From Candidatus Omnitrophota bacterium (GTDB taxonomy: Bacteria > Omnitrophota > Gorgyraeia > Gygaellales > Profunditerraquicolaceae), in NCBI GenBank assembly GCA_043814315.1, contig JBDRKE010000033.1, positions 10,422 through 74,421 of the forward strand: DNA of 64,000 bases, written 5' to 3'. Positions 2,948-62,857 of the stretch are shown here, one piece after another (positions within the stretch are counted from its first letter, which is position 1; every line of letters begins with the position of its first letter). Below the pieces are notes generated by a model, which saw only the letters and a list, made by a program, of their open reading frames with translations, was not told the origin of the DNA and did not search any database. The translations under genes were made by a program, and so were the position numbers.

Positions 2948-3060
2948 AAAAATCCCAAATCCCAATATTGCCAAATCCCAAATCCAAAACTATTTGGGTT
3001 TTGGATTTTGACATTTGGATTTATTTGGTAGTATTGGTATTATTTGGATTTTGGATTTCT
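2948..3060. repeat. word-repeat long imperfect hairpin (aaatccc / gggattt words)
   Basis: The left arm is built of aaatcccaaat words and the right arm of ggattttggattt words. It shares tttggtagtattggtattatttg with 36216-36300 and ggattttgacatttggattta with 52333-52452. Confidence 0.7.
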
Positions 3061-3085: not shown

Positions 3086-4411
3086 ATGGGAAGAAGGCCG
3101 TTAGATATTGAAAAAATTGCGATGGAATTGATCATGAGCGATGATTTGGCTGCGAAAAAAAAACTTTCCAAAAAGATTTTTGACATCGCTTATAAAAAAG
3201 GAATTTATCCTTCAAGTATACATGATTTTTACATGGCCCGCGGCAGAGGCGAATTCTTTGGGTTCACGGTGCCAGCCATCAACTTAAGAAGCATGACGTA
3301 TGATCTGGCAAAGGCGATTTTTAGGGTTGCTCAAAAGAATAATTCCGGTGCTTTTATCTTTGAGATTGCCAAGTCCGAGATGGGTTACACCGCTCAAGCC
3401 CCCCTAGAATACGCAAGCGCCGTCCTGGCAGCTGCGGTCAAGGAGGGATACGCGGGCCCTGTGTTCATCCAGGCGGACCATACCCAGGCCAATGCCAAGA
3501 AATATTTGCAAAACCCCGAGAAAGAAATGGAGGGTTTGCAGACTTTAATCAGCGAAGCGATAGACGCCCACTTTTATAATATCGACATCGATTCATCCAC
3601 GCTCGTGGATTTGTCCCATAAGGATATCAAGAAACAGCAGCATCTGAATTTCGAAGTCTGCGCAAAACTTACCCAGTTTATCAGGCGCATCGAGCCGCGC
3701 GGGGTGACGATTTCCGTGGGAGGAGAAATCGGGGAGGTGGGCCATCAGAATTCTACTCCCGAGGACCTGAGGGCCTTTATGGCAGGTTTTAAAGAGAGAT
3801 TGCGCAAGGGGTTAATCGGAATCAGCAAGATTTCCGTGCAAACGGGAACCTCGCACGGAGGCGTGGTTCTGCCGGATGGCTCCATTGCCCAGGTTAAACT
3901 TGATTTCGATACCTTGAAGAATCTTTCCCAGATAGCCAAGTCTGAGTTCGGTTTAGCGGGCGCTGTGCAGCATGGAGCATCCACTTTACCGGCTGAGGCC
4001 TTTCATAAATTCGCCGAGTGTGATGCCGCAGAAGTACATTTAGCCACGGAATTCCAGAACATGATCTACGAAAGCAAGCACTTTTCCGCAGAATTAAGGA
4101 CAAGGATGTATGAATGGTTGAAAGTCAATGCCGCCGCAGAGAAAAAAGAGGGAGAGACCGAGGAGCAGTTTATTTATAAGACGCGTAAAAAAGCCCTGGG
4201 CCCCTTTAAAAGAGAGATTATGGGCCTTCCTCAAGAGACAAGGGATGCCATAGCCGGGGAGATAGAAGAAAGATTTGATTTCTTGTTTAAGCAACTCAAT
4301 ACGGTTAATAACAAACAGCTGGTAGATAAATATATCACTTTAAAACGCGTGATTGTGCGAAAGCGAAAAGCAGCCAAGCACGCGGTGCATAATGGAGAAG
4401 GAGCGGATTAA
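3086..4411 (+). CDS. class II fructose-bisphosphate aldolase family protein (long form)
   Basis: PAINLRS, FIQADH and QTGTSHGG motifs are typical of class II aldolases. Start set at ATG 3086 after the gggagg SD; the upstream part of the ORF lies in the repeat. Confidence 0.72.
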   Translation: MGRRPLDIEKIAMELIMSDDLAAKKKLSKKIFDIAYKKGIYPSSIHDFYMARGRGEFFGFTVPAINLRSMTYDLAKAIFRVAQKNNSGAFIFEIAKSEMGYTAQAPLEYASAVLAAAVKEGYAGPVFIQADHTQANAKKYLQNPEKEMEGLQTLISEAIDAHFYNIDIDSSTLVDLSHKDIKKQQHLNFEVCAKLTQFIRRIEPRGVTISVGGEIGEVGHQNSTPEDLRAFMAGFKERLRKGLIGISKISVQTGTSHGGVVLPDGSIAQVKLDFDTLKNLSQIAKSEFGLAGAVQHGASTLPAEAFHKFAECDAAEVHLATEFQNMIYESKHFSAELRTRMYEWLKVNAAAEKKEGETEEQFIYKTRKKALGPFKREIMGLPQETRDAIAGEIEERFDFLFKQLNTVNNKQLVDKYITLKRVIVRKRKAAKHAVHNGEGAD

Positions 4412-4541
4412 ATGAGGCCACAACTTAGCGAGCGTCAGTGAAGCTAAGATGTATGGCCGAATTTATCCCGACGAATGTGGAAGAATTTAGAATAAATTTT
4501 TCCACAGTTTATGAGTCGGGATTAAGAAGGAAGGGGTAATC

Positions 4542-6194
4542 ATGCGTTCCGATAAGATTAAAAAAGGATTAGAGAGGGTTCCGCACCGCGCTCTTTTGCA
4601 TGCTACGGGTTTGAGCAGAAAAGATCTGAAAAGGCCCTTTATCGGGGTGGCAACCTCTTTTACGGACCTCATCCCCGGCCATATCGGTATGCGAGACTTA
4701 GAGCGCTTCATTGAGCGCGGGATTTGTTACGGCCAGGGCGTGCCGTTTTTCTTCGGCGTGCCCGGGATCTGCGACGGCATCGCCATGGGGCATTTAGGGA
4801 TGTGTTACCCGTTAGCCTTAAGAGAGATCGTGGCGGATACGATTGAGACGGTTTGTAATGCCCATAGCCTCGACGGGATCGTGTGCCTGACGAATTGCGA
4901 TAAGATCACGCCGGGCATGCTGATGGGTGTGGCACGCCTTAATATCCCCGCGATTATCTTGACGGCAGGCCCTATGATGTCTGGCCGTTTTCGACAGAAA
5001 AAGTTAGCTTTTGTGCATGACACCTATGAAGCCCTGGCCAGGGCAAAAAAAGGAGAAATATCTTCGCAAGAATTATCTTGTTTAGAAATGGAGGCTTGTC
5101 CCGGGGCAGGTTCCTGCCAGGGCCTCTACACGGCGAATACCATGGCCTGTTTAACCGAAACCTTAGGGATGTCTTTGCCGGGATGCGCAACGGCCTTAGC
5201 GGTTTCAGCTAAGAAGCGTAGAATCGCCCAAGCCAGCGGTGAGCGTATCGTGGAATTGGCGAAAAAAAATATTAAACCTTTGGATATCATCAATCAAAGG
5301 TCTTTGGAAAATGCCATTACCGTGGATATGGCCCTGGGCGGCTCAAGCAACACGGTTTTGCACCTTATGGCCATCGCCCATGAGACGGGAATAGAATTGG
5401 ATCTTAAAACATTTGATAAAATCAGCAAGCATACCCCGCACATCACAAACCTAGAACCCGCCGGGCCTCACTTTATGGAAGATTTAGAATATGCCGGAGG
5501 AATCCCTGCCGTGCTTAGAAGACTAAAGAGCAGATTAAACAACGCGATGACTCTTAGCGGTAAAAGAATATTTGATATCGCGGATGATGCCGTGATCTCT
5601 GACGAGGAAGTGATTCGTTCCTTTGAGCGCGCTTATCATAAGCAGGGCGGTATTGCCGTGTTGTTTGGGAATCTTGCGCCTGATGGAGCCGTGGTCAAGC
5701 AGGCGGCCGTCAGTCCCAAGATGATGCGATCCAGCGGCAAGGCTAAAGTTTTTAACCGCGAAGAAGAAGCCATGCAGGCGATTTTGAATAAGAAGATAAA
5801 AGCAGGGGATGTGGTTGTTATCCGCTACGAAGGCCCCAGCGGAGGCCCGGGCATGAGGGAAATGCTGGCTCCCACCTCTGCGATTGTGGGGATGGGCTTG
5901 GCTGAATCCGTGGCCCTGATTACCGACGGAAGGTTCTCCGGCGGCACCCAAGGCCCCTGCATCGGGCATATTTCCCCTGAGGCTTCCAGCCGCGGCCCCC
6001 TTGCGATTTTGAAGGACGGTGATATAATCAGCATAGATATACCGAATAGAAAAATAGAGGTTAAACTAAATAAAACCGAAATTGAAAAAAGATTTAAAAA
6101 TTGGAAACCTGTTTTGCCGAAGATTAAATCAGGGTATCTGGGAAGGTATTCTAAACTGGTCAGTTCGGCGGATAAAGGAGCCATTTTAGAATGA
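4542..6194 (+). CDS. ilvD: dihydroxy-acid dehydratase
   Basis: 550 aa with [19 protein letters not shown] and GRFSGGT motifs. The TGA stop overlaps the ilvB ATG. Confidence 0.95.
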
Positions 6195-7453
6195 CAGGCG
6201 CACAAATCTTAATAGAGTGTTTGAAGCGCGAAGGGGTCAAGGTCATGTTCGGCTATCCCGGAGGCCAGGTCCTGCCTATTTTTGATAATCTTTATGATTC
6301 GGATATAAAGTTTATCCTCACCCGTCATGAGCAGGGCGCTGCCCATGCCGCTGAGGGATATTCTCGGGCCACGGGTAAGGTGGGGGTGTGCATTGCCACA
6401 TCCGGCCCGGGGGCTACAAATCTGACGACAGGATTGGCGAATGCCTTTATGGACTCCATAGCCATGGTGGCCATTACAGGACAAGTCAAATCTTTTTTGA
6501 TCGGCAACGATGCTTTTCAGGAAGCCGATGTCACGGGTATCACCCGGCCCGTAACCAAGCATAATTATCTGGTGAAGGATGCCAAAGATTTGGCCAGGAT
6601 CGTGCGGGAGGCTTTTTATATCGCCTCAAGCGGAAGGCCCGGCCCTGTGTTAATCGATATTCCTTCCGATATCCAGATGCAGGATATTGAATTCATCTGG
6701 CCTGAGAAGATTCAGATACGTAGCTATAAGCCCACTTATTTCGGACACCCCGGCCAGATCAAAAAAGCAGCTAAGCTTATTGCCAGCGCTAAAAAACCGG
6801 TTATTTATGCCGGAGGCGGAGTTATCAGTTCAGGCGCGCACCTTGTGCTTCGGGAGCTTGCCGAAAAAATCCAGACGCCGGTGACAACCACGCTTATGGG
6901 GATGGGCGGGTTTCCTGACACGCATAAGCTTTCCCTGCAGATGCTGGGCATGCACGGCACTGCCTATGCCAATCATGCGATTATGGAGGCAGATTTGATT
7001 ATTTCGGTGGGCGCGCGTTTTGATGACCGCGTGACCGGCAGGCTCGATTCCTTTGCGCCGGGAGCCAAGATCATCCATATCGATATCGACCCTTCCTCCA
7101 TAAGTAAGAACGTCAAAGTGGATGTGCCTATCGTAGGAGATGCGAAGAATATCGTGGGCGAATTATTGGAGCAGATCAAGAAGGTGCCTGATACCTCGGA
7201 GTGGTTAAAGACGGTTGAGGGATGGAAGAAAAAATATCCCATGAAATATCTGGATGACGATAAACTTCGGCCTCAATATGTAGTGGAACAGCTTTATGAG
7301 GTAACCAAGGGAAAGGCTGTCATCACCACCGAAGTCGGCCAAAACCAGATGTGGGCAGCGCAGTGGTATAAGTATACCTTGCCCCGTACTTTTATTTCCT
7401 CAGGGGGGGCTCGGTACGATGGGGTTTGGTTTTCCTGCGGCCATGGGTGCTAA
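6191..7453 (+). CDS. ilvB: acetolactate synthase large subunit, N-terminal fragment (frame lost in G7 run at 7403-7409)
   Basis: Family-typical sequence up to FISSGG, after which the frame breaks. The reading continues in the next ORF. Confidence 0.85.
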
Positions 7454-7853
7454 AATCGGCTGTCCGGATAAACACGTAATTGATATCGCAGGTGACGGTT
7501 CCATACAGATGAATATTCAGGAGCTGGCGACCTGCGTCTGCAATAAAATTAACGTCAAGGTGGTCATTTTGAATAACGGTTATTTAGGGATGGTGCGTCA
7601 GTGGCAGGAACTTTTTTATAAAAAACGTTATTCGCATGTCTGTATCAGCGGGCCTGATTTTGTGAAGCTTGCAGACAGTTACGGAGCCGTTGGGATTCAG
7701 GTAACCAGGAAACAGGACGTGCGCGCGGCGCTTGAGAAGGCCCTGGCTATTGATAATACGGTATTCATTGATTTTCGCGTTGAACAGGAAGAGAATGTGT
7801 TTCCCATGGTGCCGGCGGGGGAAGCTATTAACAGGATGATGGGGTTGGCATAG
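7419..7853 (+). CDS. ilvB: acetolactate synthase large subunit, C-terminal fragment (TPP-binding region)
   Basis: [12 protein letters not shown]...GDGS...NNGYLGMVRQWQ. Removing one G from the 7403-7409 run restores [14 protein letters not shown]. Confidence 0.85.
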   Translation: MGFGFPAAMGAKIGCPDKHVIDIAGDGSIQMNIQELATCVCNKINVKVVILNNGYLGMVRQWQELFYKKRYSHVCISGPDFVKLADSYGAVGIQVTRKQDVRAALEKALAIDNTVFIDFRVEQEENVFPMVPAGEAINRMMGLA

Positions 7854-8392: not shown

Positions 8393-8403
8393 AAGAAAAA
8401 TAG

Positions 8404-8441
8404 CGTCAAAATCCTCTTAGGAGGATTTTGACGTCATTTTT
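8404..8441 (+). terminator. stem-loop with weak T tract between ilvN and ilvC
   Basis: Perfect 13-bp stem cgtcaaaatcctc/gaggattttgacg with loop ttag, followed by tcattttt. Confidence 0.45.
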
Positions 8442-8483
8442 CCGATTAGTAAAAAACTATAGAAAAATGAAGGAGGGTTGATA

Positions 8484-9476
8484 ATGGCAAAGATTTATTA
8501 TGATAATGATGCAGACTTAAACTTATTGAAAGGTAAGACCATTGCCATCATCGGTTATGGCATTCAGGGCCGCGGCCAGTCGCTTTGTCTTCGGGATTCA
8601 GGCTGCAGCGTGATTGTTTCGGAGGTGGAAGGCACGGCAAATTATGAGCAGGCAAAAAAAGACGGATTCAACCCTGTCTCTGCAGGTGAGGCAGCCAAAG
8701 CCGCCGATATCATCCAGATTTTGACCCAGGACCACGTCCAAGCCAAAGTCTATAAGGAGAGCATCAAGCCGAATCTAAAGAAAAAGAAAGCCCTTTGTTT
8801 TTCACACGGTTTCAATATCCGTTTTAAACAGATCAAGCCGCCTAAAAATGTGGATGTGTTTATGGTGGCGCCCAAAGGTCCGGGGGCTCTGGTGAGACGC
8901 ATGTACGAAGAAGGCAAAGGCGTCCCCTCGCTGATTGCAGTTTTTCAGGACGCAACAGGCCAGGCCAAACAGCTGGCTTTGGCTTATGCCAAGGCACTAA
9001 AAGCGACCACGGCAGGTGTTATTGAGACAACCTTTGAAGAAGAGACAGAAACAGACTTATTCGGTGAGCAAGCCGTGCTTTGCGGCGGGGTGACGGAACT
9101 TATCAAGGCAGGCTTTGATACGTTGATGGAAGCAGGTTATCAGCCCGAGATCGCGTACTTCGAGGTGCTCCATGAGCTTAAGCTTATCACGGATCTTATC
9201 CAGGAAAGAGGGGTTTCAGGGATGCGCCGGGGTGTTTCCAATACAGCCTGCTACGGAGATTTGACCCGCGGGCCGCGGGTTATCACCCAGAGAACACGCA
9301 AGGAAATGAAAAAAATGCTCAAAGAAATAAAAAGCGGAAAGTTCGCCCGCGAATGGATTAAAGAGAATGAAGCTGGCCGGCCGAATTTTAACAGGTTATT
9401 AGCTGAGGGAGATAATCATAAGATAGAGGAAGTAGGGAAGAGGCTAAGAGAGATGATGCCTTGGATGAAACATTAG
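8484..9476 (+). CDS. ilvC: ketol-acid reductoisomerase
   Basis: [17 protein letters not shown] and class-I KARI length. ATG 8484 lies 7 nt after the aggaggg SD; the ORF track starts at TTG 8478. Confidence 0.93.
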
Positions 9477-9800
9477 CGCGCAACAAGGGTTATGTCCTTC
9501 GCAGAGCTCAGGATGATTTTGCTGTAACCGCCAGAGGCACAGCAAAATCAATGCCGTGGATGAAACACTAAGGGATATGCACTTTGCAGAGCTCAGGATG
9601 ATTTTGCGCCTAACCCCGAGCATGGCTCGGGATAAAATTAAGCCTAATCACCAGAGGTAGGCTTAATTTTAACCGCCAGAGGCACAGCAAAATCAATGCC
9701 TTGGATGAGGAAGTAAAGGAGATATGCACCTCGCAGGGCGAGGTGCGATTTTGGCATAGGCACCAGAGGTATGCCAAAATCGTGCCTTGGATGAAGAAAG
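9456..9800 (+). repeat. tandem iteration of the ilvC 3' end plus hairpin units
   Basis: ATGCC(T/G)TGGATGA... plus a stop occurs at 9456, 9551, 9696 and 9782. Each unit carries gcagagctcaggatgatttt-like sequence and a CCAGAGG-loop hairpin. Confidence 0.8.
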
Positions 9801-9897
9801 CGTAAAGTGTAAAGCGAAAAGCGTAAAGTTAAAGTGTAAAACTAAAAGTTTTGAATTTTAAGTTTTAGTTTGGCGCATTGCGCTTTGAGTTTTGAGC
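9797..9897. repeat. word-repeat long hairpin (gtaaag / cttt.. words)
   Basis: gcgtaaagtgtaaagcgaaaagcgtaaagttaaagtgtaaaac on the left faces gttttgaattttaagttttagtttgg...ctttgagttttgag on the right. Confidence 0.55.
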
Positions 9898-9904: not shown

Positions 9905-11413
9905 ATGGACAAAATAATCATATTTGATACGACATTAAGAGATGGCGAGCAGGCGCCGGGCGCAAGCCTGAATGCGGCGGAAAAACTGGAGATCGCGCAT
10001 GCGCTCGCGGATATGGGCGTAGATGTCATTGAAGCAGGTTTTCCCATATCCAGCAAAGGGGATCTGGCCTCTGTTAAGCAAATCGCCAGAGCCATTAAGG
10101 GGCCGACGATCTGCGGCCTGGCCCGTGCCGTTAAACAGGATATTGATGCCAGCGCTGAGGCTGTCAAGGTTGCCAAGAGGCCCCGTATCCACGTATTCCT
10201 GGCCACTTCCAAGATCCATATGCAGTATAAATTAAAGAAGGCAGAGGAGGAGATCTTAAGGCTTGCCGTAGAATCCGTAAAATACGCTAAAAAATTTTGC
10301 GAGGACATAGAATTTTCACCTGAGGACGCCTCGCGAAGCGAGCGTGAATTTCTTTTTAAGGTTGTTCAGGCGGTTATCGAGGCAGGGGCAACCACGGTCA
10401 ATATTCCCGATACGGTCGGTTACGCAGAACCGCAAGAATACGCGGCTCTGATAAAAGCGATTAAAGAGAATGTCCCGAATATTGACAAGGCCGTTATCTC
10501 CGTACATTGCCATAATGATTTAGGTTTAGCTGTAGCGAATTCCCTGGAAGCGGTAAGAAGCGGTGCCCGCCAGGTGGAGTGTACTGTTAACGGTATAGGG
10601 GAGCGCGCCGGCAATGCCTCGATGGAAGAGATTGTCATGGCCATAAAGACACGCAGGGATATCTTCGGGGATGTTGAAAGTCAGATCCGCACAACGCAAA
10701 TCCATAAGGTCTCTCGCCTCGTAAGCAAACTCACCGGCTTTATCGTAGCCCCGAACAAGGCTATTGTGGGCGCTAACGCTTTCAGGCATGAGTCCGGCAT
10801 TCATCAAGACGGCATTTTAAAGGAGCGCTCAACTTATGAGATTATAAAACCCGAGGATGTAGGATTCGTCGGTTCCGGTATTGTCCTGGGAAAGCATTCC
10901 GGAAGACACGCGCTGGGAGAGCGGTTAAAGGAACTGGGTTTCGATTTGACGGCCGGAGCAGTGGATAAGATTAATATACGCTTCAAAGAGCTTGCCGACA
11001 AAAAGAAAAATGTCTTTGACGAAGACCTGATTGCCGTGGTTGAAGATGAAATCAAGCTGATTAAGCCTTTGTGGAAACTGGAAGGCTTTGAAGTCAATTC
11101 GGGAACGAAAATCACTCCTTCGGCAACGGTTACGTTGAAATACCGTAACAAGCCTCTTTCGGCAAAATCTTCCGGCGATGGCCCGGTGGATGCCTGTTTT
11201 AAAGCCATTGATAAGATCACCGGCATGAAAGCCGAGCTTCAGGATTACCGTATCGAGGCGGTCACGAAAGGCAAGGACGCTTTAGGGGAAGTCGGCCTTA
11301 AACTGAAAGCCAAGGGTAAGGTGGTTACCAGCCGAGGCTCAAGCACGGATATTATCGAAGCCTCTGTCAGGGCCTATGTAAATGCCCTGAATAAGATAGA
11401 GAGTCTTTGGTAG
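9905..11413 (+). CDS. leuA: 2-isopropylmalate synthase
   Basis: 502 aa with [17 protein letters not shown] and HESGIHQDG motifs plus the C-terminal LeuA dimerisation/regulatory domain. Confidence 0.95.
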
Positions 11414-16203: not shown

Positions 16204-19200
16204 TTATCCCTTCCCTAAAAATACCTCCCTTAATTCCTGCGCGCTTCCCATGGATTCTAACACTACCAGGATGTCTCTGAGTGTGGCGTCAGTTGAGCAG
16301 CAGCTTTCTTCCTCTGACCTTAAGATATCCGATATGCAAAAAAGAATTTTATCCCTATCCTGCGTTATGCTCTCTTGAGCGCAGGATGTCTGTATATATT
16401 CCTTTATTCTCTCCGAAGAGGGAGTAATCCCTGAACTTGCCATCCTTGCAATCTGCCGCCACTCCTCATCAAGGTTAGTGCTAACCAAATTCCGAATAGC
16501 CGAAGAACTAATATTTACGCTTAAGTTAGTCATCGCCTGGGTGACGATGGGGAGAGAGCGGAAATCGATTCCTCCAAATCTTTGTTCCATCGCCGAGCTG
16601 GCGGTCTCTGGCTCAAGCGGCGAGCCGGAGACGGGATTATTTCCCAATGGAGGAGAATTTTTGATAGAACCGTCTCCTTTTTCTCTCGCAAGAACCTCCG
16701 TCATCCTCATAAAAAGCAGCATTTTTTCAAGCTGAGAGATTGCTACTTTAAGTTTCTCGCCCTCCAGAGGTTTGCTTTTAAAAATCTCATCAAGTTTATA
16801 TGTAAAAGTGCTGAAAAATACATTTACGGCAAAACGATAATCACTGCAGATACTCTCCGGAGTTCCACTCCTTTGAAATTCCTTTTCTGCTCTATCTAAA
16901 ACTTCCCCTGCCTTCATTCTTTTCATGGTATCCTGTAAGGCATTGACGGCATCCGCGTTCCAGGTTAGTGCCGCCTCGTAAATCTTGATTGCCTGCTGCC
17001 AGAATAAATATGAACCCCGGGTATGATAATAAATATCCCTCATGACCGGATTATCAGCGAAAGGAAGCCTATACAGCCTGGTTTCCTGACGCGAAAGAAG
17101 AGACGGCACATAATACAGGCGATAACTAATAGTTTTCCCGTCTTTTTGAGGGATTCCAATACCAGCCCACTCAAAGCCGTTCTCTAACCAATCCCTAAAA
17201 TCACTGTCACTAAATTCAAGCCCTCCGTCGGGATGATAATGAAAATAAAAAACCGGGGTTGCTTTTTTTTGTTCCACTTCTTTTTGTACGCGCATTTGAT
17301 ATCTCATTGTCCGTGCATGAGAATAATCCGTTATAATCAGATCCCAGTCGTTTTCTAAACTTAATCCTCCCCTTTCCGTTATTATGCGCTGAACAGCTAC
17401 GATATTTTCTGGCAAAGTTATGGGTGCCAGTTTTGAAATTATAGCTACAGCTTCCCCCCAGTCATATTGGTCAGAGAAAATAATAGAATCGCCTTCTTTG
17501 TCCGATATCAGTGTAAGCCTACCTTGAGAATTAACTTCTAAGCGTAAATCATATGACTCTGCTATAGCACGCAAAACCTTTTCTTTAAATCCTCCGATCA
17601 TATACCGTTCGACCAATTTTGTCTCTACATAAAGAATTTTATTTCTTCTGGGTAAAATCAGATCCACCAGTATATCCTTATTGCCCTCTTTTCTAACCAA
17701 GCCCACAGTCGATAATTCAGCATCTCTATATATATCCAAATAGCGCCGATGGAATTCATTCATTTGTTCTATAACTTGAGCTTCCGCATATAACAGCTCA
17801 TCTTCATATATTCCAAAAACCGAAATCAAAGGTCTTGCTGCTGTTGACCCCATTGCCGAAGAGGCTTTAACAGGCCCACTCTCCATCACCGAGCTGGCGG
17901 ACTCTGGCTCAAGCGGCGAGCCGGAGGTTTCCTTGGAAAAATCAGAACCGTCCCTATTTCCTGCAAGATCAATCTCGCTAGTTTCTACATTAACTTGAAC
18001 TGCTATCATTCTTGCCTTATTACGTTTGTCAAAAAGAGTTATCGTTATTGTAGGGGCATAAATCTCCTCTTTCGTGACAGGCTTGACGATGCCACTGTAA
18101 GACAGATAAATAAAATCATCAACGGAAATCCCAAAAAGATCAACAACTTCATGGCGCTTGCTTTCGCTCACCAAAACACCAAAAGCTTCATAAGCTTTTT
18201 TTTCATTTTCTACTGTATCCTTGTTTGGCTCCATGGCTTTAGCAGCTTTATAACTTGCCTCCTGAGCCAAATATTCGTCCATCAAAGGAGCAAGACCTGG
18301 ATTTTCTTTGTGATTTTTTATATGTGTTGCTTCATGAGCTATCATCCGGGCTAACCAAGCATCTCTAGCTTCTTGTGAGGGTAACGCCTCTGAATTATTA
18401 TAGTAGTCATACCCTACAACAATCAATTCCAAGTCCCCAAAAATCGCCATACCCCAGTCATCATTCATGCCCTTCAAAAAGAACAACACCGGCACAAAAG
18501 AAGTACTACTGGAAAGAATATTCTCCGCCATCAAGTAATCATAAGCTTGCCTGACCAGTGTTTCGTTCTGATTAGAAAGATTAATGGATGTCTTTAAATC
18601 CTCTTCAGAAACTGAACCGAGTCTGTTGCTTACCGCATCTTGAAGTTCTTTTAAAGAAAATTCCACGCCTTGTAAAATGCTATCCTTTTTATTTTCACCG
18701 CTTTTCTCATAACTACCTCCACAGCCTAAAAAACCGAATGTCGCCCCTACTGCCAAAGCCTTTATTAATGTCCGTGTCTGTTTAAGAAATTCTCGCCTTG
18801 AAAGATCTGACGATTCTCCCACCGCCGAAGAAGCTATGGACGTCTGTTCTTGGGGGCGCAACTCTACTTTATCTATTTCGCTCGACATGGTTGTAGCACC
18901 CACTTTAATTTCTATAACATTATGATTTAAACTCTGAGGAAGGCGACTTGCTATCGAAGACGATACAGCTCCTGTTTTAGGATTATGCACTACTTCACCT
19001 AATCCAGGCATACGTCCTAAGTCAAATATTTCTCCTCCACTAAAATAACTCCTTATTGTCTGACCATAGGGTGTATAAACTGGCTCCTTGATATTATATT
19101 CTCCATCTTTAAATGACTTCTGGTATTCTTTAAAATAGGGAGTCTTTGACCAGTTTTCTTTGGAGGTAAGGTTAGTTAAGTCTTTTCTATCTATGAGATG

Positions 19201-19539
19201 GGAATAAAGGCCATCTTTACTGTAGTAGCGTGCCTTAAACCACTGGGCCATAATCAAAGAATAATAAACCTGCCTTAAGGAAGCGTAGCGCTTGGAGGAG
19301 TTTACTTCTTTGGTAAGTTTGGGGATGATGAGCTCGCGGATGAGCTGTGTAGAATATTCGTTCAGGATTTTGGAGCGTTCATCCTTAAACTCATAGTTCC
19401 CTGCACCCTGCACCATCCACCCTGCACCCTGGCCACTCTCCTGTCCCCTCAAATAATCCTGCTCTAACATGACCTTTAAAGTGGCTTTATAAATATAGGC
19501 CGAGTCCGTCGTCTCGCGGATAATGATCTCTCCCGGCAC
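16204..19539 (-). CDS. giant modular secreted protein paralog, main fragment (downstream of in-frame TGA)
   Basis: The first ~170 aa and last ~125 aa align to the 38398-43587 product. Internally it has SRREFLK...FLGC, HEATH, HYHx7SxxD and two 44-nt SGSPLEPE junctions. Confidence 0.75.
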   Translation of the reverse strand: MPGEIIIRETTDSAYIYKATLKVMLEQDYLRGQESGQGAGWMVQGAGNYEFKDERSKILNEYSTQLIRELIIPKLTKEVNSSKRYASLRQVYYSLIMAQWFKARYYSKDGLYSHLIDRKDLTNLTSKENWSKTPYFKEYQKSFKDGEYNIKEPVYTPYGQTIRSYFSGGEIFDLGRMPGLGEVVHNPKTGAVSSSIASRLPQSLNHNVIEIKVGATTMSSEIDKVELRPQEQTSIASSAVGESSDLSRREFLKQTRTLIKALAVGATFGFLGCGGSYEKSGENKKDSILQGVEFSLKELQDAVSNRLGSVSEEDLKTSINLSNQNETLVRQAYDYLMAENILSSSTSFVPVLFFLKGMNDDWGMAIFGDLELIVVGYDYYNNSEALPSQEARDAWLARMIAHEATHIKNHKENPGLAPLMDEYLAQEASYKAAKAMEPNKDTVENEKKAYEAFGVLVSESKRHEVVDLFGISVDDFIYLSYSGIVKPVTKEEIYAPTITITLFDKRNKARMIAVQVNVETSEIDLAGNRDGSDFSKETSGSPLEPESASSVMESGPVKASSAMGSTAARPLISVFGIYEDELLYAEAQVIEQMNEFHRRYLDIYRDAELSTVGLVRKEGNKDILVDLILPRRNKILYVETKLVERYMIGGFKEKVLRAIAESYDLRLEVNSQGRLTLISDKEGDSIIFSDQYDWGEAVAIISKLAPITLPENIVAVQRIITERGGLSLENDWDLIITDYSHARTMRYQMRVQKEVEQKKATPVFYFHYHPDGGLEFSDSDFRDWLENGFEWAGIGIPQKDGKTISYRLYYVPSLLSRQETRLYRLPFADNPVMRDIYYHTRGSYLFWQQAIKIYEAALTWNADAVNALQDTMKRMKAGEVLDRAEKEFQRSGTPESICSDYRFAVNVFFSTFTYKLDEIFKSKPLEGEKLKVAISQLEKMLLFMRMTEVLAREKGDGSIKNSPPLGNNPVSGSPLEPETASSAMEQRFGGIDFRSLPIVTQAMTNLSVNISSSAIRNLVSTNLDEEWRQIARMASSGITPSSERIKEYIQTSCAQESITQDRDKILFCISDILRSEEESCCSTDATLRDILVVLESMGSAQELREVFLGKG

Positions 19540-32885: not shown

Positions 32886-32937
32886 ATCCCGTTAGAAATT
32901 GGAATTTTAACGGGGACAAGAAGGGATTTCTAACGGG

Positions 32938-34125
32938 ATGAAAGATTTCTTAGAGGGTTCTCGGGCGGTTGCCGAGACCGTGAAACTTTGTAAGCCGGGG
33001 GTGATTTCCGCTTACCCCATTACGCCCCAGACGCACATCGTCGAAGAATTAGCCAAGATGGTGGCTAACGGCGAATTAGGCTCTTCGTTTGTCAATGTGG
33101 AGAGCGAGCATTCCGCTGCCTCCGTGGTCCTGGGAGGGGTAGCTGCAGGCGTGCGTTCTTACACGGCGACCAGCTCACAAGGCCTGCTTTATATGGGAGA
33201 GGTGATTTTTAATATCGCGGGGATGCGCCTGCCGCTCGTTCTGACTTGTGCCAACAGGGCTATCTCAGCCCCCATCAATATTTGGAACGACCAGCAGGAT
33301 TCCGTATCGCTGCGGGATGCCGGATGGATACAGTTGTATGCGGAGAATATCCAGGAAACAGTTGACCTTCATCTTATGGCCTATCGCATCAGCGAAGACA
33401 AGTCTATGATGCTTCCGGTGATGGTGTGCATGGATGGTTTCATTTTAACGCATGGCATGGAGGCCGTGGATATTCCTGAACAGGATAAGGCGGATAAGTT
33501 CCTGCCTGCTTACAAACCTCTCTATAAGCTTGATCCTGCCGCGCCTTTGACTATGGGGTTGCTGGCAGACCCTGATTATTACATGGAAACACGTTTTGCC
33601 ATTCAGGAGACCCTGAAGGCAGCCTTAAATTTTATCCCTAAGGTCAGCCAGGAATTTAAAAGCGTTTTCGGCCGGGATTATAAAGATTGTTTAATAGAAG
33701 AGTATGGCACCAGGGATGCCCAGAAGGTGATTGTGGCCATGGGTTCTGTCTGCGGCACCATCAAGGAAGTGGTGGACCAGATGCGGCAGAAAGGTAAAAA
33801 GGTCGGTTTGTTAAAGATTGTCTCTTACCGGCCGTTTCCTTACGCGCAGGTTTATCAGGCACTCAAGAATGTGCCGCAGGTTGCGGTATTAGATAAAGCC
33901 GTTTCTTTGGGGGCATGGCCTCCTTTAGCCGTGGAGATCAAGGCCGCCTTCTGCGGAAAAAAGAAGGCGCCTAAGGCCGTTGGTTCTTTTGTCGCAGGTT
34001 TAGGCGGCAGGGATATAACGCTTGATTCGATAAGGGAGATATTCAGAAGGCTCACGCAAAAAGAAATCAACTGGGAGTTTATCGATTTAAAACCCGAGTT
34101 GCTCAGGGAGGAATATGGAGAATAG
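32938..34125 (+). CDS. porA: 2-oxoacid:ferredoxin oxidoreductase alpha subunit
   Basis: 395 aa with GSRAVAE...AYPITPQT...ESEHSA motifs. Confidence 0.9.
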   Translation: MKDFLEGSRAVAETVKLCKPGVISAYPITPQTHIVEELAKMVANGELGSSFVNVESEHSAASVVLGGVAAGVRSYTATSSQGLLYMGEVIFNIAGMRLPLVLTCANRAISAPINIWNDQQDSVSLRDAGWIQLYAENIQETVDLHLMAYRISEDKSMMLPVMVCMDGFILTHGMEAVDIPEQDKADKFLPAYKPLYKLDPAAPLTMGLLADPDYYMETRFAIQETLKAALNFIPKVSQEFKSVFGRDYKDCLIEEYGTRDAQKVIVAMGSVCGTIKEVVDQMRQKGKKVGLLKIVSYRPFPYAQVYQALKNVPQVAVLDKAVSLGAWPPLAVEIKAAFCGKKKAPKAVGSFVAGLGGRDITLDSIREIFRRLTQKEINWEFIDLKPELLREEYGE

Positions 34126-35611
34126 AGTTTTGTTTAAACCGGGCCATACCGCATGTGCGGGTTGCGGCCAGTCTTTGGCTGCCCGTTTAGTCTTAGAAGC
34201 AGCCGGCCCCAATACCATCGTGGTGAATAATACGGGCTGCCTGGAGGTGTTTTCCACAAAATATCCGGAATCCGCATGGGGCGTGCCCTGGATTCACTCT
34301 CTGTTCGAGAATGCCGCGGCTGTGGCTTCGGGAGTTGAATCCGCCTTGATTTATTTAGGTAAGAAAGAGGGGATTAATGTTATTGCCCAGGCAGGTGACG
34401 GTGGTACTGCGGACATAGGCCTGCAGGCTTTATCCGGCATGTTGGAGCGGGGGCATGATATTTTATACGTCTGTTACGACAATGAGGCCTATATGAATTG
34501 TTTAAGCATATCCTCTTCAGTCATGACAAAAGAGGGTCTTAAAAGAATAACAGAAATAAAAATTGGTGACGAAATTTGTGCTTTTGACCAAAATAACCAT
34601 CAGATGGTCATAAAGAAATGTAGTGGAGTATTTGATAATGGTAGAAAAGAAGTATTTGAGCTCAAGACCCTCTATTATTCTATAAAGGCAACAGCCAATC
34701 ATCCCTTTTTGGTTTTACAGAGAAATGAAAAAGGAGGGCATAGCAGTTTAGTTTGGAAGATGCTTAAGGATGTGGATATAGCGACTGGTGATAGAGTTGT
34801 AACATTAAAAAGCATGAATGACGATACTCCTTTTCGTTTCCTAGACTTGCATAAAAGAATGTCCGTCAGTAAAATATCCACTTTTCTTCCACAGGAACAA
34901 AAAGAGAAATTTGTTGGAGGTTTGATGCTGGCTGAAGAAGAGTTCTTGCCAGATAATAAATTTTTCCAGACTGAAGAAGTATTAAGCATAAAGTCAAAAG
35001 GAGTGGAGCCAACTTTAGATTTAAGGATAGAAGAGGAGCATAATTTTATTGCCGATGGCATCGTCGTTCATAACACGGGCATTCAACGCAGCGGCCTCAC
35101 CCCTTTTCATTCCGCGACAACGACAAGCCCCTTTGGCCGTCAATCCTTTGGAAACATCCGGCCTAAAAAACCTATGCCTGAAATTGCCCTGGCGCACGGC
35201 ATCCCTTATGTGGCCACGACCTCTGCGGGCTTCATGCAGGATTTGCAGAGAAAAGTCAAAAAGGCCCTTTCTATCAAAGGCCCCAAATACCTGCAGATTC
35301 ATGTCCCTTGTCCTTTGGGCTGGAGGCATGAGCCAAATCTAACGCTGGCCGTGGCAAAATGTGCGGTTGAGACGGGCCTTTATCCTTTAATTGAATATGA
35401 AGGAGGCGCCCTTGTGTCCCGTCGGCAGATAACACCGAAACCCGTTCAGGAGTATCTGAAAGTTCAGGGCAGATTCAAGCACCTCTTGAATGCGCCCGAG
35501 GAGATCAGGAAGATCCAGGAAATAGCGGATCATAATATCGAGAAGTACGGACTAAGTGAAAAATCACAAATTCCAAATTCCAAATCACAAACAAATCCTA
35601 ATACCCAATGA
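34115..35611 (+). CDS. porB: 2-oxoacid:ferredoxin oxidoreductase beta subunit (TPP-binding), interrupted by an intein
   Basis: CAGCG, GDGG and YDNEAYMN|TGIQRSG extein motifs. 498 aa, versus about 300 aa once the insert is removed. Confidence 0.9.
   Translation: MENRVLFKPGHTACAGCGQSLAARLVLEAAGPNTIVVNNTGCLEVFSTKYPESAWGVPWIHSLFENAAAVASGVESALIYLGKKEGINVIAQAGDGGTADIGLQALSGMLERGHDILYVCYDNEAYMNCLSISSSVMTKEGLKRITEIKIGDEICAFDQNNHQMVIKKCSGVFDNGRKEVFELKTLYYSIKATANHPFLVLQRNEKGGHSSLVWKMLKDVDIATGDRVVTLKSMNDDTPFRFLDLHKRMSVSKISTFLPQEQKEKFVGGLMLAEEEFLPDNKFFQTEEVLSIKSKGVEPTLDLRIEEEHNFIADGIVVHNTGIQRSGLTPFHSATTTSPFGRQSFGNIRPKKPMPEIALAHGIPYVATTSAGFMQDLQRKVKKALSIKGPKYLQIHVPCPLGWRHEPNLTLAVAKCAVETGLYPLIEYEGGALVSRRQITPKPVQEYLKVQGRFKHLLNAPEEIRKIQEIADHNIEKYGLSEKSQIPNSKSQTNPNTQ
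34499..35074 (+). mobile_element. mini-intein (192 aa) in PorB
   Basis: It starts CLSISSSVMT, has block B TANHPF, and ends EHNFIADGIVVHN followed by +1 Thr. The flanks join to the conserved YDNEAYMN-TGIQRSG. The insert is AT-richer than the exteins. Confidence 0.88.
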
Positions 35612-35712
35612 CCAAAATTCCAAACTTAAAGTCAAAAACAAATAAATTTGGGCATTGTAATTTTGGTATTGTTTATTGTTTGTAATTTGTGTATTGTGAT
35701 TTGTGGTTTGAC
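35558..35712. repeat. word-repeat long hairpin (aaatcacaaa / tttgtgattt words)
   Basis: The left arm overlaps the last ~17 codons of porB. The right arm is ttgtttattgtttgtaatttgtgtattgtgatttgtggtttg. Related to 53332-53482. Confidence 0.7.
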
Positions 35713-38397: not shown

Positions 38398-41300
38398 ATG
38401 TTACGCAAAACAACCTCATTAGTTTTAACTCTTGGTTTATTCTTCCAACAATTAAGCTTTGCGCAGGTAGCTGTGGACCTTAATATCGCCGGGCACCTTT
38501 CCAGGATGGCTTCTGGGATGGCCGTAGAAAAATTCAGGCCTGTGCACCTGCGCTATTTTTCCTACGACAGCCTAAGTGATAATTTCAAGGTGCTCCTGGA
38601 TAAAGGAGACCTCAAGCAGTTGGATCCTCTTAAGGCCGAAGAATCAGCCAGGCAGCTTTTGAGTTACTTTTTGATAGGGGTCACTATGCCGGATGAGGCG
38701 TTTTGGGTGAACCTTAGGCCTGATTCAGAGAACCAGATTATAGACCCTTACCTGGAAAAGACAGATGTAGGTAAGATTATGCTTAAGGCGGACCTTCAGC
38801 TTAAGAAGGATACCGCAGCCCTCACTTCTCCCAAGACTCCCGAAGGCAGGGAATATTGGAACCGGCTCTATAAAAAAGCAGAGGAGCTCTATGGTTATGA
38901 GGCGGTTAATATACCTGCCTTAACCAGGCCCTGGATAGTCCCCGGTGAAATCATCATCAGGGAATCCCAGGAGAGCGCCTATATCTATAAGGCGACTCTT
39001 AAGGTGATGCTGGAGCAGGATTATTTAAAGGGGCAGGGGAGTGGCCAGGGTGCAGGGTGGATGGTACAGGGTGCAGGGAATTATGAGTTTAAGGATGAGC
39101 GCTCCAGGATTCTGAATGAATACTCAACCCAGCTTGTACGCGAACTCATCGTTCCGAAACTCACCAAAGAGGTCAATAGCGCCAAGCGCTATGCCGCAGT
39201 CAGGCAGGTGTATTATTCACTCATCCTTTCCCGCTGGTTCAAGCAGCGTTTTTCCGGAAAAAGCGGCACCTATGCTTCTCTCATCAATACCGAAGACCTC
39301 ACGAACCTGCTTTCCAGGGAACCCTGGTCAAAGACCGATTATTTCAAGCAATACCAGAAGTCATTCGCAGAAGGGGAATATAACATCCAAGAGCCGGTTT
39401 ACACTCCCACAGGCCAAACGATACGGAGTTATTTCAGCGGAGGGATGGCACTGCAAGCTATCAATACAGGTAATCGTTTTACAGTTGAACCTAACCTGGC
39501 CTTGTTTAAAACAGGGTTTCCTTTGCAAGGTGATGCTAAAGGAATTATTAGCGCCGGCTCGCCGGTGACGGAAGCGCAGGCATTAGCGAAAGAGTTTGCT
39601 GAATCAATGGCAGCTAATGACATTATTAATTCTGACCTTAAGGCGCAGGAGGAGGTAATCTCTATCTTGCTGCCCCTCATAGAAGAGTTCTCCCTTCAGT
39701 TCGGGCGCGTTTCTGTTACAGAGGAAGCATTTGATTATTATAGATGGATTCAAGGTCTTCAGGCTGACCCTAAATATGTGATGGAATTACAAAATCCGGC
39801 ATTTTATTCAAAGAAAGCCAGGGAGTTTGTCAATGAAAGGTTTGATAATATCCCCACTGTTGTTGAGAATAAATTATCAAGGTTGGCCCTTGAGGAACCG
39901 GAGCTGGTCCAATTCAAAGATGAGTTAATATTTTGGCTGCAGCAGGTTATAAGTGACGGCGTGCGCAGCGACCTTCCTGATGATTCCAAAAAAGTGAGGA
40001 TATCGGCAATATTGAGCCTACCTAACTATATCGAAGCTTCCCCCCAGAAATACCCTCCTGAGATGAATTCCCTAATAAATTCTTTTCTGGATACGCATAG
40101 TGTGGAGAAGATAAGGGCAATTGAGTCAACAAACAATAAGGAATTGGGCGAGATACTAAACATACTTACATCCAGCGTGCTTGATACCAGCCTCGTAGCT
40201 TCCGCCGGATCGCCGGTGGAATCGGAAGCTGCTTTAGTGCAACAGATAAAGGACCGGTTGTGGCGTGTAATTAAGGAAACCGAGGATTCGCTACTGTTTA
40301 ATGGTACAAAATATTTGCCTAAAAAATTAAATCAAGCTGCAAGTTTGAAAGAATTAGGCAATTTTCGTGGTGAGTTTTTTGGAGCAATCGATGAACTAAT
40401 AGCATGGAATAAAGAGAATTCCACGGTATTAAAATCTTCTGAATACAACATTGGCAGGTTGAATCAGCTAAAGAACTCTATAGTTGATATCTTACCCCAA
40501 CTCTTTGCGCAGGAAATAAATAATCTATTTAACGAAAATGTGAAATTTGAGATCTATAAAGGCGAAAGTGACGGCAATTATTATTTTAAAATGTGGGACA
40601 GAATAATAAATCAGCCCAATGTTTCCAGCGCCACAGACGGAGGTTTTTATTCCGGTAAACCCAACCTGCATAGATTGTTTATAGCCCTACTAGAATCCGG
40701 CTTTGCCCTAGATCCTAAAACCAATACGATTACCTTTAGTAACAGCCAGGCAGTCGATGAGATTAAAACCCAGATTAAAGCTCATATGCCTGAATCCGCC
40801 GCCGGCCCTTCGACTCGCTCCGCTCGCTCAGGGTCAGCGCAGCCCGATGAAGACAAAGCCGCCGGCTCGCCGGTTCAAACGGAAACTGAAGATCTGAGAA
40901 AGCTTAAGAACCTTCTTCTTTTGAAGATGGAAGACCTGACGCCTGAACATCGAAAAATCATAGGAGACTCATCTCTTGAATTGCCTTTAGGCGGAACGAC
41001 TTCATTAAAAGAATTTAATGAATCCCTTATTAAGTCTATTAAAGAAGTCGACGGCTTGATAACACGAAGCGAAGAGATTATCAAACATTATAAAGATATC
41101 CTCTCCTACAGGTGGTTAGAAAACTCAGCGAAAGATAATTTAGAGGCGTGGGGTTCATTAAAAAATATCTTAGAAGAGATATCAAAAGAATTATCAAAAT
41201 ACGCATCAATCTATCCGGCCATATTCGTGAAGGGCTTTTTAACAACTGGCTTAATGGATCAGGCCCAGGCGCCGGACGAAGGTGCCGCCGGCTCGCCGGT

Positions 41301-52332: not shown

Positions 52333-52452
52333 AAAATTCAAATGACAAAGCACAAAATTCAAAATAAGCCCCCATTTCCAAATCCCAAACTTACTTTTTG
52401 GATTTGGGATTTTGGATTTGTTTTGGATTTTGGATTTTGACATTTGGATTTA
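52333..52452. repeat. word-repeat long hairpin (aaattc/aaatccc vs ggattt words)
   Basis: ...ccaaatcccaaac ttac tttttggatttgggattttggatttgttttggattttggattttgacatttggattt. Confidence 0.7.
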
Positions 52453-53044: not shown

Positions 53045-53328
53045 ATAAATATGAAGCTATGTTAATCTTCAAACCGGATTTATCCGACGAGGAAAAAAAG
53101 ACTCTATTCCAGCAGATTCATGACGCCGTCACAAAGAATAAAGGGGAAGTTTACGACGGTTCCATATGGGCGGAGAAAAGAAAACTGCATTTTCCTCTTA
53201 AAAAGCATCGGGAGGGTTCTTATTATCTAATGAATTTTAATCTCGACCCTCTCTCGATTGGGCTCGTCCATCAGGCGTATAAGTTGAATGAGAATATATT
53301 AAGAGTCCTCATTACGAAGGCAGAATAA
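53041..53328 (+). CDS. rpsF: 30S ribosomal protein S6
   Basis: YE.M.I..P...EE, EKRKLHFPLKK and GSYYLMNF patterns. It lies in an rpsF-ssb-rpsR-rplI cluster. Confidence 0.9.
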   Translation: MNKYEAMLIFKPDLSDEEKKTLFQQIHDAVTKNKGEVYDGSIWAEKRKLHFPLKKHREGSYYLMNFNLDPLSIGLVHQAYKLNENILRVLITKAE

Positions 53329-53331
53329 TGT

Positions 53332-53482
53332 TAAATCCCAAATCACAAATACCAATATACAAACAAATCATAAAACCCTGCCTGCCGGCAGGCAGGCAAA
53401 ACCATAATACACAATGTTTTTTATGATTTGAATATTTGGTATTGTGGTTTGTTTGTGATTTGTGGTTTGTGATTTGGAATTT
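53332..53482. repeat. word-repeat long hairpin with 20-nt perfect palindrome at the apex
   Basis: aaatcccaaatcacaaataccaatatacaaacaaatca ... CCTGCCTGCCGGCAGGCAGG (53377-53396) ... tgatttgaatatttggtattgtggtttgtttgtgatttgtggtttgtgatttgg. Confidence 0.75.
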
Positions 53483-58482: not shown

Positions 58483-58490
58483 GCGAGGGT

Positions 58491-58661
58491 GAACTTACCC
58501 CCCCACCACTTTTTGTAACAAGCGCGTGATTTACTAAATAGGGGGCGAGGGGTAGCTATACCGAAGGATCTTATTTCAAGTGTATTCTCAAAAAGTGGTG
58601 GGGGGTTAATTCGCGCATTAACTTACGTCGTGCTTCGCACTCCGTAAGTTAAGCGCTCATT
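58491..58661 (+). repeat. two-hairpin 5'-UTR element, copy E1 (upstream of skp)
   Basis: ccccccaccactttttg/caaaaagtggtgggggg forms a 17-bp stem, then TTAATTCG, then the hairpin cgcattaacttacg...cgtaagttaagcg, then CTCATTAAA and the SD. Confidence 0.7.
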
Positions 58662-62741: not shown

Positions 62742-62857
62742 GAACTTACCCCCCACCACCTTCAATATAGCATAGGCTATAGCGAAAGTGGTGGGGGGTC
62801 AATTCGCGCAGATAACTTACGTCGCGCCTTCAGCGCTTTGTAAGTTATGCGCTCATT
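62742..62857 (+). repeat. two-hairpin 5'-UTR element, copy E2 (upstream of lpxI)
   Basis: gaacttaccccccaccac...gtggtggggggTCAATTCGcgcagataacttac...gtaagttatgcgCTCATTGAA-ATG. Confidence 0.7.

Follow-up and report, generated by a model that had tools for sequence, protein, structure and literature searches.

Palindromic two-hairpin repeats and iterated ilvC termini in the ilvC–leuA spacer of a Candidatus Omnitrophota genome

A 64,000-nt stretch of DNA from a Candidatus Omnitrophota bacterium (assembly GCA_043814315.1, contig JBDRKE010000033.1, positions 10,422–74,421; hereafter the window, whose coordinates are used throughout) contains a 428-nt spacer between ilvC, encoding ketol-acid reductoisomerase, and leuA, encoding 2-isopropylmalate synthase. 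In this spacer the last codons of ilvC recur three times, and the recurrences alternate with units made of two hairpins. The units belong to a family of short palindromic elements that is dispersed over the window, is present at some operon junctions of related genomes and absent from the same junctions in others, and is a lineage-specific family confined to a clade of Candidatus Omnitrophota. With moderate confidence, the array is attributed to a selfish repeat family resembling repetitive extragenic palindromic (REP) sequences or miniature inverted-repeat transposable elements (MITEs), combined with recombination between duplicated ilvC termini.

The ilvC–leuA spacer and the two-hairpin family

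On the + strand, the gene order is ilvD, ilvB (two open reading frames, ORFs), ilvN, ilvC and leuA. The translation of ilvC (8484–9476; Pfam KARI_N and KARI_C) ends in MMPWMKH, and leuA (9905–11413; HMGL-like and LeuA_dimer) lies on the same strand. The last 20–24 nt of ilvC (i.e. ATGCCTTGGATGAA, the tail) reappear at 9551, 9696 and 9782, giving spacings of 95, 145 and 86 nt. The tail 14-mer, searched with ≤2 mismatches, gave four matches in the spacer region as compared to 0.6 expected for the whole window. A fourfold iteration had been claimed by an earlier sequence-only reading of this stretch and was confirmed, comprising the resident terminus and three copies. The resident tail (t0, 9456–9476) consists of the true last six codons and the stop codon of ilvC (MPWMKH). 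Copy t1 (9551–9571) encodes the same peptide with three synonymous differences from t0, copy t2 (9696–9716) encodes MPWMRK, and copy t3 (9782–9805) encodes VPWMKKA. RK is the real IlvC terminus in 10 relatives and KKA is the real terminus in three. The array holds three kinds of terminus (i.e. KH twice, RK and KKA), of which t3 is probably the oldest, displaced one.

The units share one plan: a short leader after the stop codon, a hairpin A of 8–9 bp with a triloop and a TCC...GGA base, and a hairpin B of 11–13 bp with an A/T-rich base, a 4–5-nt bulge on the 5' side and a CC-AGA-GG apex, after which the next tail copy begins. All tails and units are on the + strand. Unit 1 (9477–9550; 18-nt leader; alignments A1 and A2) scored 74 bits with R1, a covariance model built from alignment A1, and comprises hairpin A with an AGA triloop (9495–9513) and hairpin B with a 12-bp stem, an AACCG bulge and the CC-AGA-GG apex (9514–9550). 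Direct and inverted repeats, alignment A2 and folding identified unit 2 (9572–9695) as a duplicate of unit 1, the two units being 89–100% identical outside an insert in unit 2. This 54-nt insert is a complete element (9611–9674; hairpin A, 9615–9631; hairpin B, 9633–9674; R1 match at 9612–9673, 67.5 bits), nested in the loop of hairpin B of unit 2 and holding the arms of that hairpin (9599–9607 and 9684–9695) apart. The nested copy is bordered by a TAACC direct repeat (9611–9615 and 9670–9674), for which unit 1 has one TAACC only (9525–9529). Unit 3 (9717–9781; R1, 71.3 bits) is 63% identical to unit 1 and consists of hairpin A with an AGG triloop (9726–9746) and hairpin B with a GGCA bulge and the same apex (9747–9781). 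Hairpins with changing stems and a common CCAGAGG apex had also been noticed in the sequence-only reading, and were found at 9514–9550, 9630–9674 and 9741–9787. The shorter hairpin A of each unit, the nested insert and the seven other sites of the element in the window had not been noticed in that reading. Folding of a 355-nt stretch of the spacer gave a z-score of −7.1 relative to shuffled sequences. CCAGAGG occurs 13 times in the window as compared to 7.0 expected. The nine perfect triloop hairpins of the window favour no particular loop, a count that ruled out AGA triloop hairpins as a general feature of the genome.

Over all copies, the element measures 55–130 nt and is formed of two unlike hairpins in direct order. 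Hairpin B has an AATT(C)G...C(TC)ATT base and an apex of either CC-AGA-GG, with the 4–5-nt 5' bulge, or ACTTAYG...CRTAAGT. In alignment A1, with six copies, 94.7% of cells were paired and double changes were observed in 17 of 19 pairs, a result matched by 0 of 500 shuffles. Alignment A3, with eleven type-2 hairpins, had 98.5% of cells paired and compensatory changes in 11 of 18 pairs, and a second covariance model, R2, was built from the type-2 hairpin alignment. R1 matched all of the spacer copies, a copy at 1310–1370, copies in L020, L026, L095, L126 and L093 (L-numbers denoting IlvC-relative loci taken from genome and metagenome collections) and two ilvN–ilvC copies on which it had not been trained (L001 and L089). 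No R1 match was obtained in 29 loci from other phyla. The units of L004, L012, L022, L081 and L087 share a linker (GGRATAAATTCG), a GCTCATT(T) end, a TC/TC internal mismatch and the ACTTAYG...CRTAAGT apex. As the ilvN–ilvC copy of L089 combines features of both types, with a CCAGAGG apex on an AATTCG...CTCATT base, the types are considered to be one family. Viral contigs were also scanned for GGGATAAATTCG...GCTCATT; the four matches were at chance level and were confirmed by neither R1 nor R2.

R1, R2 and direct reading placed the family at eight loci in the 64 kb, all between housekeeping genes and one in antisense orientation. A generic dispersed repeat had been named in the sequence-only reading as the finding that would speak against its regulatory proposals, and copies elsewhere in the window are such a finding. 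Between ahcY (S-adenosylhomocysteine hydrolase) and a response-regulator gene, a lone CC-AGA-GG hairpin (1276–1296) is followed by a full element (1310–1370; R1, 70.7 bits), the pair spanning 1276–1370 on the + strand. The antisense copy (4412–4522, − strand; type 2; R2, 73.1 bits) lies between a class-II aldolase-like gene, whose TAA stop codon is at 4409–4411, and ilvD, and has TAA on both sides. Two further type-2 copies, both on the + strand and near-identical in hairpin A, are located between bamA and skp (58483–58661; R2, 73 bits; genes assigned by Pfam) and between lpxA and the next gene (62742–62857; R2, 75.7 bits). The right end of the former, CTCATT, lies directly against the Shine-Dalgarno sequence AAAAGGAGG. 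Another + strand copy (63780–63869; GGGATCAATTCG...GGGGCTCATT, adjoined by GAAGGAGG) was matched by R2 at 63807–63869 with 25.6 bits, and a hairpin-A-like palindrome (ATCCCG...CGGGAT; 32886–32939, + strand) stands alone between a stop codon and the next start codon. The element commonly occupies the space from a stop codon to the next ribosome-binding site. At six of seven window loci, its top strand is on the G-rich strand, a placement which fits either a replication-linked or a transcription-linked bias.

The level at which the stems are maintained was assessed from the types of change in the paired positions. One-sided pair changes were absent from alignment A1. On either strand, G–U accounted for ~2% of the ~700 pairs predicted, and folding was as good for the complementary as for the sense strand, or slightly better. 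Sense/antisense folding and G–U counts revealed no signature of an RNA strand. As the stems are 95–98% Watson–Crick, with hardly any G–T, and show no strand asymmetry, the structure appears to be kept at the DNA level, as palindromes of the DNA, and not by selection acting on a single RNA strand. The cause could be a folded single strand or a templated correction of quasi-palindromes, as has been described (PMC8794818).

Filled and empty junctions and the origin of the tail copies

Unit number in the ilvC–leuA spacer, a comparison that the sequence-only reading had suggested, does vary among relatives, with zero to two units as against three and a nested copy in the window. In ~15 of ~85 clade loci the spacer measures −1 to 8 nt, and L083, which is closest to the window in the IlvC tree, has no ilvC–leuA spacer. 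As no Shine-Dalgarno sequence fits such gaps, the start region of leuA would lie within the last ilvC codons. Ancestrally, ilvC and leuA overlapped or were 1–8 nt apart. A tail–element–tail arrangement with one or two units is found in 13 more genomes (L004, L012, L020, L022, L026, L081/82, L087, L089, L093, L094, L095, L101 and L126), so that tail direct repeats of 20–24 nt are present in 14 genomes, and unit-bearing genomes are scattered among empty ones in the IlvC tree. In L020 (TAATG) and L126 (TAGTG), the last tail copy still overlaps the leuA start, and because this stop/start overlap is kept the last tail copy is taken to be the old junction. The aldolase–ilvD junction measures 1–36 nt in L095, L093, L126 and L090 as against 130 nt in the window, and the ilvN–ilvC junction carries the element in L001, L012, L016, L086, L089, L092, L100 and L103, with a remnant in L093. 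Filled and empty orthologous sites exist at all three of these junctions. Copies were recognized in relatives by R2 or direct reading in L016, L099 (antisense), L100, L103, L115 (antisense) and L089 (inverted). It is from this distribution that we infer mobility of the DNA.

The same operon junctions harbour at least three other palindromic MITE-like families ('tttcgcgggtcctgcc...', 'gggacggttctcaactc...' and 'aaatggggtcagatttatttt...'), none with tail duplication. Their sites are ilvC–leuA in L001, L010, L024, L085 and L113, ilvN–ilvC and ilvC–leuA in L024, L107 and L110, and the region upstream of ilvD in L086 and L094.

Similarity between units does not track the host tree. The IlvC relatives, by which the window is placed in Candidatus Omnitrophota, are ~75% identical in ilvC DNA, with four-fold sites near saturation. 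The 65-nt units of L094 (4994–5058) and L101 (1765–1829) differ at three positions (i.e. 95.5% identity) while ilvC four-fold sites of these two genomes, which come from different samples, are 34% identical, and the block of identity extends from t0 through the 5' half of t1. Conversely, the sister genomes L020 and L126 (58% identity at four-fold sites) have units that are just 60% identical, the best matches being with L095 for L020 and with L093 for L126. Flanking TAA is seen at the nested copy (as TAACC), at the copy of 4.4 kb and at several ilvN–ilvC copies (in the order TAA, element, TAAGGAGG). Most copies have TAA or TAG on their left, L115 being an exception; these flanks weakly suggest insertion at TAA.

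Duplication of a gene end or start was not significant at the other junctions of the window (ends of ahcY, the aldolase-like gene, bamA and lpxA; starts of ilvD, skp and the next gene; p = 0.28–0.58), as against p = 0 for the ilvC control in the same test. The ahcY tail at the 1.3-kb copy showed no duplication (p = 0.47), and a similarity to it noticed by eye was dropped after this result. As six other junctions lack a repeated gene end or start, the tail iteration is tied to the ilvC–leuA junction and not to the element. The sequence-only reading had offered, as one alternative, the repeated insertion of a small element with target duplication. Insertion is favoured by the present analysis, whereas the target-duplication half fared poorly: the 20-nt tail repeat is no standard target-site duplication, the six other junctions have no duplicated gene end, and the tails resemble the termini of different ilvC alleles.

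This last resemblance is extensive, with 14 of 19 distal tails encoding real IlvC ends of other genomes (KK, RK, KKA, KH or RSERK). Codon position 3 accounts for 27 of the 45 differences between distal and resident tails, and in ATGCCNTGGATG the N takes 9 of 15 differences. Synonymous codons differ throughout between the two tails of L089 and between those of L022; in L089, AGA-AAG of t0 is replaced by CGT-AAA in t1. The simplest account of these sequences is that the distal copies were once termini themselves and came to lie downstream, rather than being duplicates of the resident end in decay. An element can survive in a gap-free junction only with an ilvC tail on both sides, one to finish ilvC and one to precede leuA, so that the tail copies would be former or duplicated termini moved downstream. 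Two identical 93-nt units in L026, together with the near-identical units 1 and 2 of the window, argue for local growth of arrays by recombination. No recombination mosaic was detected in the window ilvC, the relatives being ~75% identical in every 120-nt bin. As a candidate for the first tail duplication, a tandem duplication bounded by the first Met ATG and the leuA ATG predicts TAATGATGCC after the element; GAATGATGCC was seen in L089, L093, L094 and L101.

A possible history of the window array begins with ilvC, t3 (KKA) and leuA in immediate succession. A module of t2 (RK) and unit 3 would have been gained, followed by a module of a KH tail and a unit. The KH module would then have been duplicated in tandem to form units 1 and 2, by unequal recombination between tail copies, and lastly another copy of the element would have entered a TAA in the loop of unit 2. 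Segments of tail plus element may be added by misaligned recombination between tails, either within the genome or with incoming DNA of relatives, and may be lost by recombination between the same repeats. By analogy with REP and ERIC sequences, the hairpins might stabilize the upstream segment of the mRNA and uncouple translation of leuA from that of ilvC.

Alternative explanations

Several observations weigh against a selfish repeat family. Terminal inverted repeats and a GTAG box are both missing from the element, which is thus neither a classical MITE nor a REP. No transposase, integrase or RAYT was found in the window (49 ORFs, Pfam) or beside any copy. The middle parts of the stems differ completely among copies whilst pairing stays perfect, which is not expected from a simple master-copy repeat. 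The TAA flanks are ambiguous, as TAA also serves as a stop codon and begins the extended Shine-Dalgarno sequence TAAGGAGG. That the L094 and L101 units are nearly identical could result from strong selection instead of transfer, and the well-preserved distal tails could have a function of their own. A tail–tail intermediate without an element was seen in no genome. Finally, the sense orientation of six of the seven window loci, and a right end that nearly always abuts a ribosome-binding site, are what a host-selected RNA function would likewise predict.

Such a function is unlikely in our estimation. The hairpins would be an intercistronic RNA module that acts as a processing or stability barrier, or as an insulator, before the next ribosome-binding site; a protein would read the TCC/GGA base and the CC-AGA-GG apex, and the tail would be kept as the translation start region of leuA. 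The prevalence of sense copies, a right end that lies 0–3 nt from the Shine-Dalgarno sequence, and conservation of base and apex with covarying stems are as this proposal would have them. However, antisense copies exist at 4412–4522 of the window and in L089, L099 and L115, G–U pairs are practically absent, and folding shows no strand asymmetry. The last tail copy restores the ancestral geometry before leuA in L020, L126, L094 and L087, and distal tails are better kept than neutral DNA should be, but the last tails beside leuA have decayed in L093, L095 and L101. An RNA module selected by the host also accords poorly with a distribution that is patchy even between sister genomes, with unit similarities that are incongruent with the host tree, with one copy nested within another and with the mutually unrelated genes that it would serve.

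It is conceivable, if doubtful, that tail and element together form a homing unit that needs no protein and is flanked by an extremely conserved 20-mer (MMPWMKK codons). In that case, a module-bearing fragment would recombine into the single tail of another species, replacing the gene end and displacing the old one with no integrase, and the KH, RK and KKA fossil termini in the window would be a record of successive arrivals.

A miniature site-specific integrative module was judged to be decidedly improbable. Here the module would run from the rest of the tail through the stop codon and hairpins to the first half of the next tail, with the ilvC tail as attachment site; its insertion would be due to an integrase whose gene is located elsewhere or, after uptake of DNA, to recombination over short homologies, and each arrival would replace the gene end. 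The direct repeats are indeed a gene 3' end, and the distal copies correspond to termini found naturally in other alleles. The L094/L101 identity block includes t0 and stops in the middle of t1, type-1 modules align over their full length with the leader after the stop codon included, and the arrays look like the tandem accretion described for integrative and conjugative, integrative mobilizable and cis-mobilizable elements (PMC5704250). Yet the same subfamilies occur at ilvN–ilvC and other junctions with no gene-end repeat, indicating that the tail is not intrinsic to the element. No integrase is encoded between ilvC and leuA in ~115 loci, a circle of 65–130 bp is implausible as a recombination substrate, and no mosaic tract is present in the window ilvC. 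The long ilvC–leuA inserts of L008 and L018 were considered as sites of an autonomous partner and rejected, containing neither a recombinase nor a tail repeat; the insert of L018 encodes a 622-aa unrelated protein. The L008 insert (3174–4467) encodes a HEPN-like protein and a nucleotidyltransferase and has a third ORF.

The two regulatory RNAs proposed in the sequence-only reading were not supported. The first, an attenuator sensing branched-chain amino acids in which translation of micro-ORFs with Ile-Leu-Leu ends would control hairpin formation upstream of leuA, is very improbable. The short ORFs themselves are real (MSFAELRMILL, MHFAELRMILR... and MHLAGRGAILA, the last with its ATG at 9724): ORFs of 11 codons follow Shine-Dalgarno-like sequences, and in units 1 and 3 the stops lie in the 5' arm of hairpin B. 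They are, however, confined to the window units and partly L026, being missing in L020, L126, L093, L095 and all type-2 and type-3 units. Each micro-ORF has one Ile and one or two Leu codons and there is no regulatory codon run. No T-tract follows hairpin A or hairpin B, and the sole terminator-like site on the + strand of the spacer (9872–9884) lies in an unrelated heptamer repeat. The element also precedes unrelated genes (i.e. the response regulator, ilvD, skp and the gene after lpxA), and many relatives have no ilvC–leuA spacer at all.

The second, a CsrA/RsmA sponge RNA whose repeated GGATGA and CAGGATG motifs would titrate CsrA, is close to untenable. The motif counts were reproduced, with six GGATGA within 340 nt (9463 to 9794), two of them being CAGGATG. 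Four of the six, however, are Trp-Met codons of the tail and the other two lie within one recent duplication (units 1 and 2). CAGGATG is missing from unit 3, from the L020, L001, L126 and L093 units and from the copy after ahcY. The GGA is located in the stem base of hairpin A, the linker or the tail codons, the loops being AGA, AGG or ATG. Rfam scans gave no Csr/Rsm match at E ≤ 10 for the window region or E ≤ 0.5 for seven relatives; no family was matched in the spacer or in these relatives, the hits being at chance level (a tRNA with 18.8 bits, a betaproteobacterial small RNA and microRNAs). A promoter–terminator pair of the small-RNA type was not found. A csrA gene was not detected by tblastn in the window and fetched loci, a result that is uninformative for the whole genome.

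Other candidates were rejected on inspection of the sequence: a hammerhead ribozyme (no CUGANGA/GAAA core), a hairpin ribozyme (a mere 7-nt ACCAGAG likeness and no Rfam match), ANTAR or T-box sites, a diversity-generating retroelement, a CRISPR-like array, and translational bypassing, of which the product would stay unchanged. A pairing between the CCAGAGG loop and the CCNTGG in the tail was also discarded, as type-2 and type-3 units keep the tail without that loop.

Further features of the window adjoin the main subjects. Between t3 and leuA, a second and unrelated type of repeat (9797–9896) has direct copies of a 7-nt sequence (AAAGTGT/AAAGCGT) and, after them, their inverted complement. The same design, with a heptamer that differs per site, was observed at 2950–3058, 35561–35643, 52395–52444 and 53326–53368 and in spacers of L004, L007, L008, L023, L033, L091, L099, L100, L105 and L112, and is reminiscent of the TAACTGA heptamer repeats of Beggiatoaceae (PMC4679880). 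In the ilvN–ilvC junction, a 22-bp inverted repeat followed by a T-run (8395–8442) is terminator-like, lies within the operon and is unrelated to the two-hairpin family. The ilvB gene for the acetolactate synthase large subunit (6191–7853) is divided into overlapping ORFs at 6191–7453 (TPP_enzyme_N and TPP_enzyme_M) and 7419–7853 (TPP_enzyme_C), which may reflect a frameshift, an assembly error or a genuine split. A pyruvate:ferredoxin oxidoreductase-like TPP-binding subunit (34115–35611) contains an Intein_splicing domain at residues 137–320. Two very large ORFs, of 1111 aa (16204–19539, − strand) and 1729 aa (38398–43587, + strand), have no Pfam match at E ≤ 1e-5; the former is on the minority strand, in a lower-GC region with reversed GC skew.

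Comparison with known systems

Attribution of the array to a palindromic repeat family frees a branched-chain amino-acid operon of a tempting regulatory annotation, be it as a sponge RNA or as an attenuator. It also presents an element that colonizes an overlapping-gene junction, where the shared codons are duplicated and the old gene ends are kept as datable fossils. The variable, purely Watson–Crick stems and the near-identical L094 and L101 copies constitute a natural test case for the upkeep of structure in hairpin repeats and for movement between species. No description of a repeat family of this sort in this uncultivated phylum was found in the literature searched.

Integron attC sites are 57–141 nt in length, variable in sequence and conserved in the structure of the folded single strand, and occur in arrays. 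The element resembles them in the conservation of structure over sequence and in its occurrence in arrays, but has no RYYYAAC/GTTRRRY cores, its unit ends being TCC... and ...CTCATT or ...ATCA. It has two hairpins rather than one long imperfect hairpin, and is accompanied by housekeeping ilv and leu genes, with neither cassettes nor intI.

Mobile ORFs that bring a foreign C-terminus to a gene were reportedly described by Paquin et al. in 1994 and 2000. The likeness to fungal mitochondria lies in mobile intergenic repeats with two hairpins and, separately, in displaced native C-terminal fragments downstream of an inserted element. Both double-hairpin elements and mobile ORFs with a foreign C-terminus are known from such genomes (Allomyces and Glomus; PMC3787672). 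These are organelle genomes, however, in which the C-terminal duplications are tied to endonuclease ORFs that are absent here.

Integrative elements that occupy the 3' ends of genes, and the cis-mobilizable remnants that accrete there in tandem, have been reviewed (PMC5704250). They share with the ilvC–leuA array direct repeats of a gene end, a gene end that is replaced with the old one being displaced, and arrays of modules bounded by repeats. The modules of the present array differ in measuring 65–130 nt and containing neither a gene nor an integrase, and the hairpin element occurs elsewhere without such repeats.

Miniature elements derived from IS200/IS605 have, like the present element, two different subterminal hairpins on one strand with no terminal inverted repeats, insert beside a short fixed sequence and are expected to show a replication-orientation bias. 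Recognition of a folded single-stranded DNA, as in IS200/IS605, would explain the pure Watson–Crick stems. Cleavage and guide sequences are not identifiable in the element, though, which is shorter than known minimal ends, and no TnpA gene was seen; a relation to IS200/IS605 is offered as a lead only.

Bacterial MITEs of transcribed intergenic regions include ERIC/IRU, Correia/NEMIS, RUP and BOX, and ERIC and Correia elements have TA direct repeats at their flanks. The present family is similar to ERIC- and Correia-type MITEs in its size (50–150 nt), its location inside operons, its folding into mRNA hairpins, its presence or absence at a given site and its nested and tandem copies. Short flanking direct repeats are a further point of likeness, TAA being possible for this family. 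It differs from them in having stems that differ completely among copies and a flanking repeat that is ambiguous. Terminal inverted repeats as in a MITE were not found, as the ends (ATCCCGAC... and ...GGCCTCAT) share 4 of 8 positions after reverse-complementing.

REPs and REPINs, which are mobilized by RAYT transposases (Bertels & Rainey 2011, PMC3116915; PMC3337134), are short, non-coding extragenic palindromes located between operon genes just after stop codons. Such sequences form several sequence classes per genome, with stems maintained and no transposase beside the copies, and the two-hairpin family agrees with them in all of these respects. It differs in that a GTAG-type box 5' of the hairpin is not conserved, GTAG being present only in L026 and L093, in that its two unlike hairpins are in direct order rather than forming an inverted REP doublet, and in that the apex and base of the hairpin are conserved and not the whole arm. 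The density of the family is roughly that of REPs in enterobacteria.

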